A stretch of DNA of 64,000 nucleotides from a candidate division WOR-3 bacterium (GTDB lineage Bacteria > Hydrothermota > Tepidihabitantia > Tepidihabitantales > DTDR01). The stretch is from NCBI GenBank assembly GCA_039801885.1, contig JBDRVN010000001.1, forward strand, positions 9,716 through 73,715. Direction: 5' to 3'. Position numbers and translations under genes: made by a program. Below, in pieces: positions 13,564 to 18,831 of the stretch (position 1 is its first letter; every line of letters starts with the position of its first letter). Below the pieces are notes generated by a model. The model did no database searches. It was not told the DNA's origin and saw only the letters and a program-made list of their open reading frames with translations.

Positions 13564-13819
13564 TTTTATTATTTGTCGGTGTGAAGATATCACTTATAAA
13601 GAAATTGAAGATTTAATTAAAAAAGGTTTTACTTTGGAAGAGATTAAAAAATTGACACGGTGTGGAATGGGGTATTGCCAAGGAAGAACTTGTTTTAACA
13701 TTCTTATTCGTTTATTAAATCTCTGCGAACAAAATCTTATTCCTAAAAAAAGGCCGCCTTTAAAACCTATCGCTATTAAAGAGATTATAAAATATTTTGA
13801 AAATGAAAAACAGCTTTGA
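13550..13819 (+). CDS. BFD-like [2Fe-2S] protein
   Basis: ICRCEDIT, TRCGMGYCQGRTC and RPP motifs. Confidence 0.85.
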   Translation: MKKNNFIICRCEDITYKEIEDLIKKGFTLEEIKKLTRCGMGYCQGRTCFNILIRLLNLCEQNLIPKKRPPLKPIAIKEIIKYFENEKQL

Positions 13820-14936
13820 TGCAGTAATTATTGGTGCTGGAGTAATTGGTGCGGCTACCGCATATTATTTGACTGAATTAGGATTAAAAGTGGCAATTAT
13901 TGAAAAAGATTATCCCACCGCCGGTTCTACAAGTAGATGCATCGGCGGTGTTCGCCAACAATTTGCTCACCCACCAACAATCCAGTTAATGATTCAATCA
14001 GTAAAGTTATTAACCGAATATCAGAATGATTTAAAATGGAATATCGAATGGTATCAAGGCGGATATCTTTTTTTAGCTCATTCGGAAGAAAAAAAAGAAA
14101 GTTACCTAAAAGCAATAGCTATTCAAAAAGAATTTAATTTACCAGTAAGTTTTTTATCTCCCGAAGAATGTCAAAAAATTGTTCCGGAATTAAATTTAGA
14201 AGGACTTTTAGGCGGTGTTTTTTGCCCAACGGATGGCCAAGTTAATCCTTTTAAATTAACTTTTAATTATTTAAATGAGATAAAAAAGAAGAAAGGCAAA
14301 CTTTATAATTTTCAAAAAGTTATCAAAATTGAAATCAAAAATTCAAAAGTAATTGGGTTAAAAACCAATAAAAATGAATATTTTTCTTCACCAATAATTA
14401 TCAACTGTGCTGGACCTTTTGCTAAAGAAGTTGGGAAATTAGTAAATTTAGATATTCCAATAGAACCAGAAAGACACGAAGCAATTGTGACAGAAAAAAT
14501 TGATAAATCTTTTCCCTGTATGATTGTTGATTATCGAGAAGACGGTTGCTATTTTGTTCAAAAACATACTACAGGAAATATTGTTGGTTGTTATACACCA
14601 ATACCTAATATCCCAGGTTATTCTTTAGATTCTTCTTTTGAATTTTTTATTGAAATGTCAAGAAGAATGGTAAGAATAATCCCTAAATTAAAAGAAATAA
14701 GAATTTTACGCCAATGGGCAGGAAGCTATGAAATGACTCCGGATGGTAATCCAATTGTTGGTGAAACCCCGATTGAAGGATTTTATCTAAATTGTGGAAT
14801 GTGTGGGCACGGTTTGATGTTTGCTCCAGCGATTGGTAAAGCTTTGGCTTATTATATTGTAAAAAAAGAATTTATATTGCCTTTAAAGGATTTTTCTCTT
14901 TTTCGAGATTTTTCTAAAAAAGAAGTAATGAAATAA
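13803..14936 (+). CDS. FAD-dependent amino-acid oxidoreductase, DAO family (sarcosine oxidase beta / proline dehydrogenase-like)
   Basis: IIGAGVIG, GSTSRCIGGVRQQF, RQWAGSYEMTPDGNPIVG and GHGLMFAP motifs. Confidence 0.88.
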   Translation: MKNSFDAVIIGAGVIGAATAYYLTELGLKVAIIEKDYPTAGSTSRCIGGVRQQFAHPPTIQLMIQSVKLLTEYQNDLKWNIEWYQGGYLFLAHSEEKKESYLKAIAIQKEFNLPVSFLSPEECQKIVPELNLEGLLGGVFCPTDGQVNPFKLTFNYLNEIKKKKGKLYNFQKVIKIEIKNSKVIGLKTNKNEYFSSPIIINCAGPFAKEVGKLVNLDIPIEPERHEAIVTEKIDKSFPCMIVDYREDGCYFVQKHTTGNIVGCYTPIPNIPGYSLDSSFEFFIEMSRRMVRIIPKLKEIRILRQWAGSYEMTPDGNPIVGETPIEGFYLNCGMCGHGLMFAPAIGKALAYYIVKKEFILPLKDFSLFRDFSKKEVMK

Positions 14937-14987: not shown

Positions 14988-15275
14988 ATGGCTTATTATA
15001 TTTTATTAACAAAATTGACTGATGAAGGAAGAAAAACTTTGAAAGATTATCCACAGAGACTAAAGGAAGTAAACGAAGAAGTAGAAGAGATGGGAGCAAA
15101 GATTATTGCCCAGTACGCGATTCTTGGCGATTATGATTTTATTAATATTTTAGAAGCACCGGATAATGAAACGATTGCTAAAATCTCCACCGAACTTGGT
15201 TCAAGAGGAACAATTCAAATAACTACTTATGGCGCAATTCCCATCGATGATTTTTTAAAAGCAATTAAAAAATAG
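14988..15275 (+). CDS. GYD domain protein
   Basis: MAYYILLTKLTDEG...LGDYDF...EAPD pattern. Confidence 0.85.
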   Translation: MAYYILLTKLTDEGRKTLKDYPQRLKEVNEEVEEMGAKIIAQYAILGDYDFINILEAPDNETIAKISTELGSRGTIQITTYGAIPIDDFLKAIKK

Positions 15276-15283
15276 GAGATTTT

Positions 15284-17524
15284 ATGATTTATTTTTTATT
15301 AATCAGTTTTATATTTAATCAGCAATTAATTTTAAACGGTAATTTTGAGGATAGTTTAAACTATTGGCAGATTAGTAGAGGAACAGGAACTACTGATTTA
15401 AATGTATCTCCTTATCATCATCCCGACCCAGATAACGAAGTTTATCTCTACAAATATGATGCTGATTATATAAAAATATTTCAAATAATTGAGATCCCTC
15501 ATATTTATTTAAATTTTTCTTTTAGTGGTAAATTATTGGCAACCGAACTTAATCCTTCGGCTCCTTATTTTGCTTTTTCATCAATAATTTTAGAATATCT
15601 GGATGAAAACGAGAATTATCTTGGCCGCACAATGTTTATTTATAAGACTCCGCATTGTTCTTTGACTAATACCTCTAATCAACACCTTATTGAAATTACC
15701 GATACTCTTTGGGACGATTATAATTTAAATATTTTTGAAGAATTTGCCAATTTACCAGCAATAAATCCTTTTGCGGTCAAAAAAATAAAAGTTGTTCTTT
15801 TTGATTCCACAAATGGTTGTTGAGCAGGTCACTGTTGGGCGAAGGTCTTCGCCGACGATATTTCTTTAATTCCAGTTTTTGGCGTTGTTGCTTATCGTTG
15901 GTTAATTGATGATAATCCACCGAGAGGTAACGGTGACGGAATTATTAATCCTGGTGAAGAGATAAATTTGCCTATTTGGGTAAGAAATTATTCTTCAAGA
16001 CAAGTTAATAATATTATTGGTAAACTTAACTTACAATTTCCTGATCCGAATGTTACTTTAATTGATAGTGTAAAGAATTTTGGTAATATTTTACCCCAGG
16101 ATTCAGCATTTACTGGTGAGGAAGGATATCTTTTCCAAGTAGCAAATAATTGTACTAATGGCTATCGAATTAATTTTATTTTAAAATGTGAAGACGAACT
16201 TGATAGTTTTTGGCTTTCTTCTGTTTATTTAAAAGTGGGAACTGCTCTTTTTAGAACCGGAATTGTTTATGCCTTGGATACACCACCGGGAAATAATAAC
16301 CGAAGATTAGACCCGGGTGAAGAATGTGCGATTGCTATTCAGTTAAGAAATATTGGCTACGGAAATGGCTATAATATTTATACAATTCTAAAATCAGCCG
16401 ATACCAGTTTGAGAATAATCGATTCAATTGGTATTTACGGAAATATTCCGGCCGGTGAAAGCAGTATGAATTTATCTAACCTTTATTATGTTTATGCTAG
16501 TCCAAGAATTATTCCTGAAACACCTATACCTTGTACTTTGAAAATTTATGGTGATAATTTTTCTCAAATTCTACCATTTATTATTACGGTTGGTGAATTA
16601 AGACCTTGCGATCCAGTAACCGATGGTTTTTATTGGGTTTATGAAGATATTGATACTTTCTATTCGGAATGTCCAAATTATGAATGGGTTGAAATAAGAG
16701 GTCAAGGCGTGCGTTTAAATTTAGGAGATGATGAAACATCGGTAATTGATTTACCAGGTTACTTTGGGTTAATTAAATATTACGATACCTATTATAATCA
16801 AATATCTATTTGTTCTAATGGTTGGGCAGCAATTGGTTATACTACGAGAGCTGATTATTCCAACACTCCTTTACCTTCCCAAATACCAAATCAACTTGCT
16901 TGTTCTTGGGATGATTATTATCCACCAATCGGTGGCGGTATTTGGTATTATTTTGACTCTTTAAATCATCGGTTAATTATTGAATGGGATTCTGTCCATT
17001 ATTTCTCACCAAGAGACCAGTGGGATAAATTTCAGATTATTATTTATGATACAACTGTAAGAACAATTAATGGTAATAATGTTATCTTTTTCCAATATTA
17101 TTCTAATAATTACTATCTCTCTAATACTGTTGGTTTTCAAAATCTAACAGGGACTTCTTTTATTAACATTCTTTATAACACTCAAATTTCTCGAGGTTTT
17201 GATAGTTTAAGACAAGGAAGAGCAATTAAAATTACTCCTAACCCTCCTCAGGTATCAATTGAAGAATCTTCTAATAAAGAAATAATAAGAAAAACAATTA
17301 TTTCCCAAAAGAAAAAGATAAAATTCTACTCGCAAAAAGATAAAGAATATACTATTTTTATTTACAATCTTAATGGTCAGTTAATAAAAAAAGAAAATAA
17401 ATATTTTAAAAAAGGTTGGCAAACCTATAATATTGATAAAAAACTACCAAAAGGCATCTATCTTATCTTTTTAAAAACTACTGATGAAAAAATCTCAAAA
17501 TTTAAAATCCTAATGATTGAATAA
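15284..17524 (+). CDS. Candidate secreted selenoprotein, 746 aa if TGA 15821-15823 is read as Sec: signal peptide, CBM-like domain, two (D/N)PGE Ig-like repeats, beta-rich domain, T9SS-like C-terminal domain
   Basis: ORFs 15284..15823 and 15968..17524 share a frame and the 48 codons between them are open. The NGNFE..W domain closes with VFADDISL after the TGA. A SECIS-like hairpin lies at 15834-15856. Confidence 0.75.
15834..15856 (+). promoter_or_regulatory. Putative bacterial SECIS element
   Basis: GTT-G-GGCGAA-[GGTC]-TTCGCC-GAC hairpin starting 10 nt after the in-frame TGA. The G-led apical loop is 20 nt from the UGA, and the GC-rich codons are atypical for this genome. Confidence 0.7.
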
Positions 17525-18831
17525 TGGAAGAAACAAATAAGACAAAAGAATTATTAAAAGCAATAAAAGATGGGAGGATTGATGAAATCCTTGCAAATAT
17601 TAGTTATTCTGACATACCGATTTTAGAAAAAGTTGGTGTTCTTCTCAATATCTATTCCGATCCCAATTATGCCAAAAAGATATTTGAAAGAATTCTTGAT
17701 TTAGACCCAGAAAATCTTTCGGCAAAATATTCATTAGGTTTTGCCTATTTTCGGTTAGAAGATTGGAACAAAGCCCTTTTCTATTTTCAAGAAGTTCTAA
17801 AAAAAGACCCAACCAATAGCCCCTGCTGGCAGGAAGTAGGAATAATTCAAATGAAAATAGGAGAATATGAAAAGGCATTAGAATCTTTTCACAAAGCGAT
17901 TGAATATTCGCCTTTTGATGCCCTTCCTTATTTTCAATTAGCTAAAGTTTCTTCCCAATTACAAAATTATGGAGAGGCTTTAGAATATATTAACAAAGCA
18001 ATTGAATTAAGACCAAAAGATATAAAAATCATTAAAGAAAAAGCGAATATTTTAATTAATTTACAAAAATATGAAGAAGCCCTTGCTCTTTTACAAGAAA
18101 TAATCGAAGAAAACCCTAACGATTTGGATGCACTCTTAAATATCAGTTTTATCTTTTGTCAACTTAAAAAATATGATTTAGCATTAAAGTTTGTTAACCA
18201 AGCAGTAAAATTAGCACCAAACGATTCAAAGGTATTGGTGACAAAGGGATATATTTTAGGTAAATTAGGAAGAATAAAAGAGGAACTAAAATATTATGAA
18301 AGAGCAACAATAATAAATCCCAATGATTGGCAAGCCCATTTTAACCAAGGTGTTTTATATTACGAACTTCAAGAAAAAGAAAAGGCATTAGAATCTTTTG
18401 AAAGGGCATTAAAATTAAACCCCGATTCTTCTGAGGTTCATCATAATATAGGAATTTTATATTTAGAGAAAAAAGAAGGAGAAAAGGCGTACTATCACTT
18501 ATTAAAAGCCGTTCAACTAAATCCAAAGATTGGTAATTATTGGTATTCCTTAGGATTGCTTTATTTAGAAACTGGGGATGCCAAAACTGCTTCCCAATGT
18601 TTTGATGAAGGTTTAAAATATGACCTCAATTCCTATTTATTATTTTCTGGTAAAGCATTAGCATTAAAAGAAATGAATCGCTTAGAAGAAGCATTAAGGT
18701 TTATTAATGAAGCAATTACAATTAATCCTAACTACTTCCAATTGTGGTATGATAAAGGCGAAATCCTTGAAAAAATGGGAAGAAAAGAAGAAGCCCAAGA
18801 ATGTTTTAAAAAAGGAAAGGAATTGGTATAA
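17524..18831 (+). CDS. Tetratricopeptide repeat protein
   Basis: About 11 tandem 34-aa TPR units (e.g. ALESFHKAIEYSP, AHFNQGVLY); start overlaps the upstream stop (TAATG). Confidence 0.9.
   Translation: MEETNKTKELLKAIKDGRIDEILANISYSDIPILEKVGVLLNIYSDPNYAKKIFERILDLDPENLSAKYSLGFAYFRLEDWNKALFYFQEVLKKDPTNSPCWQEVGIIQMKIGEYEKALESFHKAIEYSPFDALPYFQLAKVSSQLQNYGEALEYINKAIELRPKDIKIIKEKANILINLQKYEEALALLQEIIEENPNDLDALLNISFIFCQLKKYDLALKFVNQAVKLAPNDSKVLVTKGYILGKLGRIKEELKYYERATIINPNDWQAHFNQGVLYYELQEKEKALESFERALKLNPDSSEVHHNIGILYLEKKEGEKAYYHLLKAVQLNPKIGNYWYSLGLLYLETGDAKTASQCFDEGLKYDLNSYLLFSGKALALKEMNRLEEALRFINEAITINPNYFQLWYDKGEILEKMGRKEEAQECFKKGKELV

Follow-up and report, generated by a model that had tools for sequence, protein, structure and literature searches.

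The window analysed here is a 64,000-nucleotide stretch from a candidate division WOR-3 bacterium (contig JBDRVN010000001.1, positions 9,716 to 73,715), in which two consecutive open reading frames (ORFs) at 15284–17524 are separated by a single in-frame TGA. We conclude that this UGA (15821–15823) is very probably a selenocysteine (Sec) codon, and that the two ORFs are one gene for a protein of 746 amino acids. The locus had been proposed, from the letters alone, as a new family of secreted multidomain selenoproteins with a hairpin resembling a selenocysteine insertion sequence (SECIS) directly behind the TGA. In the mechanism we propose, this hairpin, which carries a GGUC loop and lies 14 nt past the UGA, would recruit SelB-GTP-Sec-tRNA(Sec) as the ribosome arrives, and Sec would be inserted at residue 180 to give one 746-aa precursor.

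Gene structure and assembly support

The first ORF (15284–15823, 179 aa, TGA stop at 15821–15823) is in frame with the second one (15968–17524, 518 aa), which starts with TTG. As originally predicted, nothing but the TGA splits the frame: the 48 codons between the two ORFs (15824–15967) are free of stops and translate as AGHCWAKVFADDISLIPVFGVVAYRWLIDDNPPRGNGDGIINPGEEIN. The read-through product contains the motif C179-U180-A-G-H-C184. The elements on which the argument depends are the following, all on the forward strand.

15274–15278, +: Shine-Dalgarno sequence AGGAG, 5 nt before the ATG at 15284, read from the sequence
15284–17524, +: predicted single selenoprotein gene, 746 codons, Sec at codon 180, stop TAA at 17522–17524; based on the translation with TGA as U and on full-length orthologues
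15821–15823, +: UGA, predicted to be read as Sec (residue 180), in the loop that leads into the last beta-strand; based on the conserved loop position and the Sec machinery
15838–15853, +: predicted SECIS core, 6-bp stem GGCGAA (15838–15843) / UUCGCC (15848–15853) with the loop GGUC (15844–15847); based on covariation and the conserved loop

The source assembly has a size of 1.56 Mb in 70 contigs, with 91% completeness and 30.9% G+C. The sequencing runs that contain the gene are labelled as hot-spring metagenomes; a contig of run X1 covers the whole 2241 nt with 7 differences, and coverage is partial in runs X2, X4 and X16. The X4 contig, which comes from another study, covers 15740–15890 with 0 differences and reproduces the TGA, so the TGA is not an assembly error. 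In addition, a metatranscriptome contig (X16) spans 15781–15930, including the TGA and the hairpin. All these contigs are evidence of the presence of the sequence, not of its translation.

Conservation of the TGA among homologues

A search of 61 genomes of the order recovered full-length orthologues from three genomes within the genus, which share 93, 84 and 74% identity and carry a single TGA each. Two distant genera contribute full-length relatives (39 and 37% identity) that likewise have a single TGA, in loci of 68 and 64% G+C. Next, 272 genomes of the phylum were searched with a profile built from the N-terminal 225 residues, giving matches in 108 genomes and in 47 of 110 genera. Among the matches listed, 150 of 150 contain an in-frame TGA (one TGA in 148 and two TGAs in 2). 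In these homologues the codon is kept as TGA and not exchanged for Trp, Arg or Gly. Neither this homologue check nor any of the other refuting checks proposed with the original prediction went against the Sec reading.

The position of the TGA is conserved as well. From loci L050–L115 we took 68 family ORFs, which correspond to 64 distinct nucleotide contexts, and in all of these 64 the U sits 4–7 residues before A-[KERV]-V-[FSL]-A-D-[DN]. On these comparisons, a mutation falls far short of explaining the conservation of the TGA.

The copy number of the family is one in this genome and up to nine in others, with some copies in tandem. For example, tandem groups of two or three paralogues, all of them with their own in-frame TGA, lie at G206:C5:76700-82866, G016:C6:3790-6464 and G041:C44:2948-5839.

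Covariation in the hairpin downstream of the UGA

The stem and the GGTC loop occupy exactly the positions that had been predicted. A lower helix may be added by GTT (15834–15836) pairing with GAC (15854–15856), with G15837 bulged. The statement that the hairpin is built from codons atypical of this genome was also confirmed, as the five codons GCG AAG GTC TTC GCC, given the peptide AKVFA, have a joint p of 7.5e-5 under the genome's own codon usage.

In an ungapped 36-nt alignment (A3), the six proposed pairs show standard pairing in 99.7% of 366 cells, and double-sided changes are found at four of the six pairs (26 cells); these values are reached in 0 of 500 column shuffles. As a control, the 3' arm was slid by 1–3 nt, which leaves only 19–65% paired. 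The compensatory changes that had been named as a check of the hairpin are therefore present, and the variants are distributed as follows.

GCGAAGGTCTTCGC[CTG]: 39 sequences, residues K/F (AAG..TTC)
GCGGAGGTCTCCGCC: 12 sequences, residues E/S (GAG..TCC)
GCGAGGGTCCTCGC[CTA]: 6 sequences, residues R/L (AGG..CTC)
GCAAAGGT[CT]TTTGCC: 5 sequences, GCA..TTT, both substitutions synonymous (third codon positions)
GCGGAGGTCTTCGCC: 1 sequence, G-U intermediate
GCGGTGGTCTCCGCC: 1 sequence, U-U mismatch beside the loop

The closing pair is formed by the last base of an unrelated codon and the wobble base of the second Ala codon, and it switches from G-C to U-A, to C-G and to A-U, once each. A FastTree phylogeny of the domain implies at least three, three and two state changes for the variable pairs. 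Of the 64 sequences, 63 have the loop GGTC and one has GGTT. The distance from the TGA to the GCG codon is 12 nt in 22 sequences, 15 nt in 34, 18 nt in 7 and 21 nt in 1; counted from the U of the UGA, GGUC is located at nt 21–30 across the family, at nt 24–27 in the present gene and at nt 21–24 in members with the 12-nt spacer.

The hairpin overlaps the last beta-strand of the domain, and in the segment of A3 that corresponds to 15839–15853 the amino-acid pairs K/F, E/S and R/L are found only as codon-complementary pairs. On this comparison, the putative SECIS stem restricts two residues of the last strand to such pairs. Homologues that lack the TGA show combinations that could not pair, such as ADVYADD, AELWADN and ARAIVDD. 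A scan of 15750–15950 against Rfam (E <= 10) gave four chance-level matches only and no SECIS family.

Selenocysteine machinery and genetic code

The Sec machinery, whose presence was another point to be checked, is found in the same genome: tRNA-Sec (72.7 bits; called SeC(tca) by ARAGORN), selA (565 bits), selB (367 bits, full length, 1–580 of 581) and selD (320 bits, interrupted by one in-frame TGA), all of which score above the curated cut-offs. The selD gene (L121/L015, G000:C23:738-1787, where G000 is this genome) is itself a selenoprotein gene, reading ..LCPG-U-ASKF.., and its hairpin GACGC-AGUUG-GCGUC is unlike the GGUC type.

Among 856 open frames of at least 250 codons, the stops are TAA in 550, TGA in 218 and TAG in 88. 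No internal stop was found in selA, in selB or in many paralogues of 1000–1700 aa. Since TGA ends 218 of the 856 long frames and these genes have no internal stops, global recoding of TGA is excluded, in line with what had been stated for the genes of the window. A crude genome-wide scan with a hairpin score filter returned four Sec candidates (L119, L120, selD and the present gene); it surely misses some genes and does not represent the complete selenoproteome.

Co-distribution of the family with selA

Over the 272 phylum genomes, selA was found in 122. The presence of the family was cross-tabulated with selA by hand, and G003 was dropped from the family-positive genomes, its sole match (E 2.7e-6) being to the next domain.

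Family present (107 genomes): selA found in 101, selA not found in 6
Family absent (165 genomes): selA found in 21, selA not found in 144

The table is descriptive and carries no statistical test, because the genomes are related to one another. Four of the six genomes with the family and without selA were searched for selB and tRNA-Sec: G041 has both (selB 351 bits, tRNA-Sec 77.6 bits), G193 has selB (330 bits), G205 has tRNA-Sec (75 bits), and in G188 neither was found. The other two, G031 and G060, are 76% and 74% complete. The presence of the family tracks the Sec trait, as seen in selA. G003, which belongs to the same genus as the present genome and is 98% complete, has none of selA, selB and tRNA-Sec, nor does it encode the Sec domain, and this looks like a joint loss of the Sec trait and the gene within one genus.

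Protein architecture

The 746-aa protein can be divided into the following parts.

15284–15325, +: probable signal peptide (MIYFLLISFIF..), a hydrophobic N-terminus seen by eye here and in homologues, boundary approximate
15326–15871, +: Sec-containing beta-sandwich resembling a carbohydrate-binding module (CBM), residues ~15–196, starting with NGNFE and ending with AKVFADDISL; based on the AlphaFold2 model and fold matches
15872–16618, +: two tandem ~122-aa repeats, opening ..P(P)xGNxxxxI/L-N/D-P-G-E-E, residues ~197–321 and 322–445; based on the translation and conserved columns of alignment A4
16619–17278, +: conserved ~220-aa domain of no named family (DGFYW..ICSNGW..WDD..), common to secreted peptidase paralogues
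17315–17521, +: predicted C-terminal sorting domain of the type IX secretion system (T9SS) type; based on Por_Secre_tail, TIGR04183 and the A4 profile

The AlphaFold2 model of the N-terminal domain, computed with alignment A2, is an all-beta sandwich with a pLDDT of 93.3 and a pTM of 0.88. Sec lies in the loop between strands 167–176 and 184–195, and the latter strand is inside the sandwich. The domain that opens with LNGNFE is closed only past the TGA, as the first reading of the sequence had noticed, and the pairing of NGxFE with ADD is conserved in the family. In many members a Gln directly follows the predicted cleavage site of the signal peptide (..G/S/A-Q-E-L-L-x-N-G-D-F-E; A2, by eye).

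An NGxFE start and a ..DD..L end are typical of CBM modules, and the suggested CBM-like nature of the domain is upheld as a fold class. Foldseek matched the model to CBM16, CBM11, CBM61, F-box sugar-binding domains and C-terminal domains of phage tailspikes (E 4e-7 to 1e-5, probability 1.00). Using VIA-align against representatives, Z was 15.3 for 5w6h, 13.6 for 8xmz (a porphyran-binding CBM), 13.0 for 4d0q and 12.7 for 2zew (CBM16), with many CBM4, CBM11 and CBM61 modules at Z of about 10–11. The structures compared share the fold (CBM16 2zew, CBM4 1gui and 3k4z, CBM11 1v0a, CBM61 2xom, 8xmz and the C-terminal domain of phage CBA120 tailspike 4, 5w6h; Z 15.3–10, rmsd 2.3–3.7 Å over 123–146 residues), but identity is 8–20% and none of them has Sec. 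No Pfam or NCBIfam (release 20) model, and no Pfam CBM family, matches residues 1–196, and the best match of the domain profile to solved chains is a domain of 5x7o (E 9.5e-4). Because of this low identity, the lack of a Pfam or NCBIfam model and the weak profile match, the CBM likeness denotes a fold class, not family membership.

The tandem repeats are probably Ig-like spacer domains, and most family members have about 430–440 residues past the Sec domain, which is one repeat fewer than in this genus. The 220-aa domain (DGFYW..ICSNGW..WDD) matches no Pfam family. Residues 200–746 match 10–20 paralogues per genome at 37–53% identity; the two paralogues scanned are a Peptidase_C25 protein with propeptide and a Peptidase_S8 protein, both ending in FlgD_ig and Por_Secre_tail. 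As these residues are common to peptidase paralogues, the rest of the protein is the stalk-and-anchor module of secreted peptidases in this lineage. An adjacent pair of Peptidase_S8 and Peptidase_C25 genes in this genome (L116:50-2722 and L116:2735-6424; contig C25) shares, at about 50% identity, the 550-aa C-terminal module of the selenoprotein, made up of the two repeats, the 220-aa domain and the T9SS-type tail.

For the predicted T9SS-like tail, the family profile A4 matches the solved T9SS C-terminal domains 6za2, 5m11 and 8glk (E 6e-7 to 6e-5), but the tail of this protein itself scores just under both cut-offs (Por_Secre_tail E 1.7e-5, 25.5 bits, cut-off 27; TIGR04183 22.1 bits, cut-off 23). 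The peptidase paralogues pass the T9SS tail cut-offs. From the probable signal peptide, the stalk shared with secreted peptidases and the putative T9SS sorting tail, we consider it most likely that the protein is displayed on the cell surface.

Database footprint and cysteine homologues

The 64-sequence domain profile A2 was searched against 1.84 billion cluster representatives, which gave 434 proteins at E <= 1e-3, 233 at <= 1e-10 and 100 at <= 1e-30. In the best 150 of these 434 representatives, 112 ORFs end at the Sec site, 21 are fragments and 17 pass the site without a TGA. This large family (434 representatives; 108 of 272 phylum genomes) is almost invisible, because gene callers end the ORF at the UGA.

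The residue before Sec in the 112 site-ending entries is Cys in 81 and Gly in 23. The original prediction described a C-U-x-x-x-C site; Sec itself is found family-wide, but C-U-x-x-x-C is only one of several contexts, and the C-U dyad does not define the new family because 23 of the 112 members have Gly at this position.

Only one of the 17 homologues without TGA, P0053, aligns a Cys with the U (..HSC-GDGWAEV vs ..YSGU-GTPVAEV). P0022, P0038, P0060 and P0078 keep only the preceding Cys, and the others have neither Cys and show different architectures of up to 2727 aa. Sec therefore arose as a novelty in a single clade of a wider domain family, and Cys forms are rare.

Genomic context and the Omp28-related neighbour

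Upstream in the window, a DAO-type oxidoreductase gene (13797–14936) is followed by a GYD-domain gene (14988–15275). At the 3' end, the stop TAA overlaps the ATG of a gene for a 435-aa tetratricopeptide repeat (TPR) protein (17524–18831; TAATG, 17522–17526), and the same TPR gene comes next after the family gene in each of the four genomes from this genus. In the neighbour survey, the other flanking genes were heterogeneous and gave no functional lead (RtcB, DUF2207, HD, GlmS-like, Asx/Lys-tRNA synthetase, Na/sulfate symporter, DUF6754, TPR).

At seven loci of different genera (L060, L063, L072, L074, L099, L102 and L106), an Omp28-family gene with a T9SS tail lies 30–226 nt upstream of the family gene on the same strand. 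The Omp28-related genes at L063 and L074 accompany those with the following coordinates.

L060:2218-3159, −: Omp28-related gene upstream
L072:525-1457, +: Omp28-related gene upstream
L099:345-1274, +: Omp28-related gene upstream
L102:395-1324, +: Omp28-related gene upstream
L106:507-1427, +: Omp28-related gene upstream

These upstream genes have their own in-frame TGA in ..VVCEExxxEG-U-xSC.., and in the six loci whose context was read this TGA is followed by a hairpin GCCAGU(G/A)-GKRY-(C/U)ACUGGC, usually GCCAGUG-GGAC-CACUGGC. By its sequence, the upstream gene corresponds to the curated Omp28-related selenoprotein NF045500, and together with the gene of the new family it would form a conserved pair of exported selenoprotein genes.

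Two further candidates for exported selenoproteins, both Omp28-related and thioredoxin-like with an in-frame TGA in a UxxC motif, are encoded elsewhere in the present genome. L119:97-1110 (G000:C43:5858-6871) has EGUGSC and a T9SS tail, and L120:28-750 (G000:C29:19559-20281) has AGUPFC and a lipoprotein-type signal; each has a hairpin past the TGA. Both match NF045500 and PF11551 with scores below or near the cut-offs, and below those of NCBIfam. The read-through protein itself (P0001) has no NF045500 or PF11551 match and a different fold, and the Omp28-related protein is its neighbour, not its homologue.

Comparison with known systems

The loop of the Escherichia coli fdhF hairpin reads GGUC. 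The present gene is like the fdhF type in its in-frame UGA, the short stem-loop about 11–20 nt further on, the G-U in the apical loop and the SelB/tRNA-Sec machinery; according to PMC8659212, the fdhF upper stem-loop comprises nt 15–31, 11 nt from the UGA, with essential G23 and U24 in the loop. The present gene differs in encoding an unrelated protein and in a spacing that changes in 3-nt steps, and a conserved bulged U was not seen here.

Mammalian thioredoxin reductase carries a vicinal GCUG. An adjacent Cys-Sec, which here stands in G-C-U-A-G, is shared with the families SaoL, SaoC, HgcA and MbdU ('CU' in Table 1 of PMC13188914), but the folds and cellular locations are unrelated. The Omp28-related selenoprotein appears in the same table as 'hypothetical protein GOS_C' with a UxxC motif. 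It is like the new family in being exported (it has a signal peptide and, in many cases, a T9SS tail) and in occurring in the same genomes (two copies here). Its fold is thioredoxin-like and its UxxC motif lies near the N-terminus, whereas the new family places Sec in the last loop of a CBM-like sandwich; the two share no sequence similarity.

None of the 119 prokaryotic selenoprotein families and subfamilies of that table (May 2026) has a CBM-like domain, a peptidase-type stalk or the present motif. Nothing similar is mentioned in the covered parts of the deep-Sep (PMC12013277) and BSepDB (PMC13326102) publications, and the former states that deep-Sep may miss selenoproteins without Cys homologues. 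The literature contained nothing relevant on selenoproteins of WOR-3/Stahlbacteria, with type IX secretion or with carbohydrate-binding modules; the supplements of papers and one survey of groundwater metagenome-assembled genomes were outside this scope. This is apparently a large selenoprotein family that is undescribed in the sources covered. The original prediction did not recognise a family with this architecture, and this part stands, as there is no match in Pfam, NCBIfam or Table 1; an exported selenoprotein is not unprecedented, though, with NF045500 already curated.

Alternative explanations

Several observations weigh against reading the UGA as a Sec codon in an exported protein. The RNA evidence is the one metatranscriptome contig X16, which is about 92% identical and derives from a relative, and the incorporation of selenium is a conclusion drawn from the sequence. 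Folded alone, the 45 nt at 15821–15865 have a minimum free energy of −13.8 kcal/mol (z = −1.53), a stability matched by 18 of 200 shuffles; as the hairpin of the single sequence is thermodynamically unexceptional, the case rests on the comparison of homologues. Part of the nucleotide conservation is at the protein level, because the hairpin overlaps the conserved A-K-V-F-A-D-D of the last beta-strand. The spacing from the UGA to the first paired base varies (11, 14, 17 and 20 nt), while the spacing in E. coli is said to be fixed. Homologues with Cys in place of Sec, which usually mark a selenoprotein family, are scarce (one clear case of 17). The residues around Sec also differ between members (C-U, G-U-G and others), which makes it hard to see one chemistry for the whole family. 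The count of in-frame TGAs refers to the 150 phylum matches listed, and a further 134 matches fall outside that listing. On the side of export, the T9SS machinery is partly supported, with a PorU-like gene at C8:5195-7174 (261 bits, cut-off 420) and a PorV-like gene at C8:8348-9334 (87 bits, cut-off 250), and a search of the genome (91% complete) for SprA gave one 26-bit fragment and no clear SprA. The PorU-like and PorV-like genes adjoin on contig C8 and may be a divergent T9SS attachment pair.

The UGA could be mainly a genuine stop, which would give a secreted 179-aa sandwich without its last strand; Sec or a near-cognate tRNA would then allow read-through only now and then, or under regulation, and the hairpin would tune termination. 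Bacterial Sec insertion competes with termination, and the unremarkable stability of the hairpin in this sequence (z = −1.53) suits such a role. However, the 179-aa product would miss the final strand 184–195, the stalk and the sorting tail, the 566 codons downstream are open with 74–93% identity in orthologues, the family tracks selA, and the GGUC loop and its distance fit the SelB-binding type; we consider this explanation improbable. It is more improbable still that the hairpin is a mere reflection of the peptide AKVFADD, or serves another RNA function, while the UGA is read independently of a SECIS. The location on a conserved beta-strand and the lack of a matching Rfam family would agree with that, but at synonymous third positions the bases are either invariant or altered on both sides of the stem together (GCG..TTC to GCA..TTT), and the closing pair still covaries at wobble positions of unrelated codons. 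The residue pairs K/F, E/S and R/L are moreover only complementary ones, whereas homologues without TGA show unpairable combinations.

A nonsense mutation, a pseudogene or two genes (a small N-terminal protein and a TTG-started 518-aa protein) would account for the split made by gene callers and for the 112 of the best 150 database representatives that end at the site. Against this, the TGA is in the same loop in 64 of 64 contexts and in frame in 150 of 150 matches listed, over 47 genera, the 48 codons in between contain no stop and are conserved, the domain closes only past the TGA, and an independent run confirms the TGA, so that we regard all these versions as highly improbable. An alternative code in which TGA is a sense codon (Trp or Gly) throughout the genome would explain the open frame, and the open frame alone; with TGA ending 218 of 856 long frames, with selA, selB and the long paralogues free of TGA, and with tRNA-Sec and its machinery present, we give it practically no credence.

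Possible function and significance

What the comparisons show is the conserved UGA, the covarying hairpin at a suitable distance, the complete Sec machinery, the co-distribution with selA and a domain completed only past the UGA; binding of SelB, incorporation of selenium, export and display on the surface are predicted from these and from the architecture of the protein. What the Sec loop (C179-U180-AGH-C184) does is a more tentative matter: possibly, at somewhat less than even chances, it is a redox-active selenenylsulfide or a centre that binds soft metals or chalcogens. Such a site is favoured by the frequent C-U dyad and by the pairing with an exported UxxC selenoprotein, and the loop may work together with this thioredoxin-fold, Omp28-related partner. 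A wider reading joins these points, although we hold it to be unlikely as a whole. In it, a lectin-like Sec 'hook' on the surface would capture or reduce protein disulfides, polysulfide, elemental sulfur or soft metals by selenenylsulfide exchange and be recycled by the Omp28-related UxxC selenoprotein, forming an extracellular selenium redox relay on a C25/S8 peptidase stalk; this pair, and not formate dehydrogenase, would be a main reason why the phylum keeps its Sec machinery.

Among characterised prokaryotic selenoproteins, a thioredoxin-like fold bearing a redox motif predominates (PMC13188914, section 7). Sec on a CBM-like sandwich that is apparently exported to the surface differs from this usual type, and discovery pipelines based on Cys homologues would find few such homologues for this family. 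The hairpin would offer a clean natural example of RNA shaping protein, in which the SECIS limits two strand residues to complementary codons. For annotation, a TGA followed by the GGUC hairpin provides a simple rule that may repair hundreds of truncated genes. Finally, the pairing with the Omp28-related selenoprotein gives a testable lead to what may be extracellular selenium chemistry in uncultivated bacteria.

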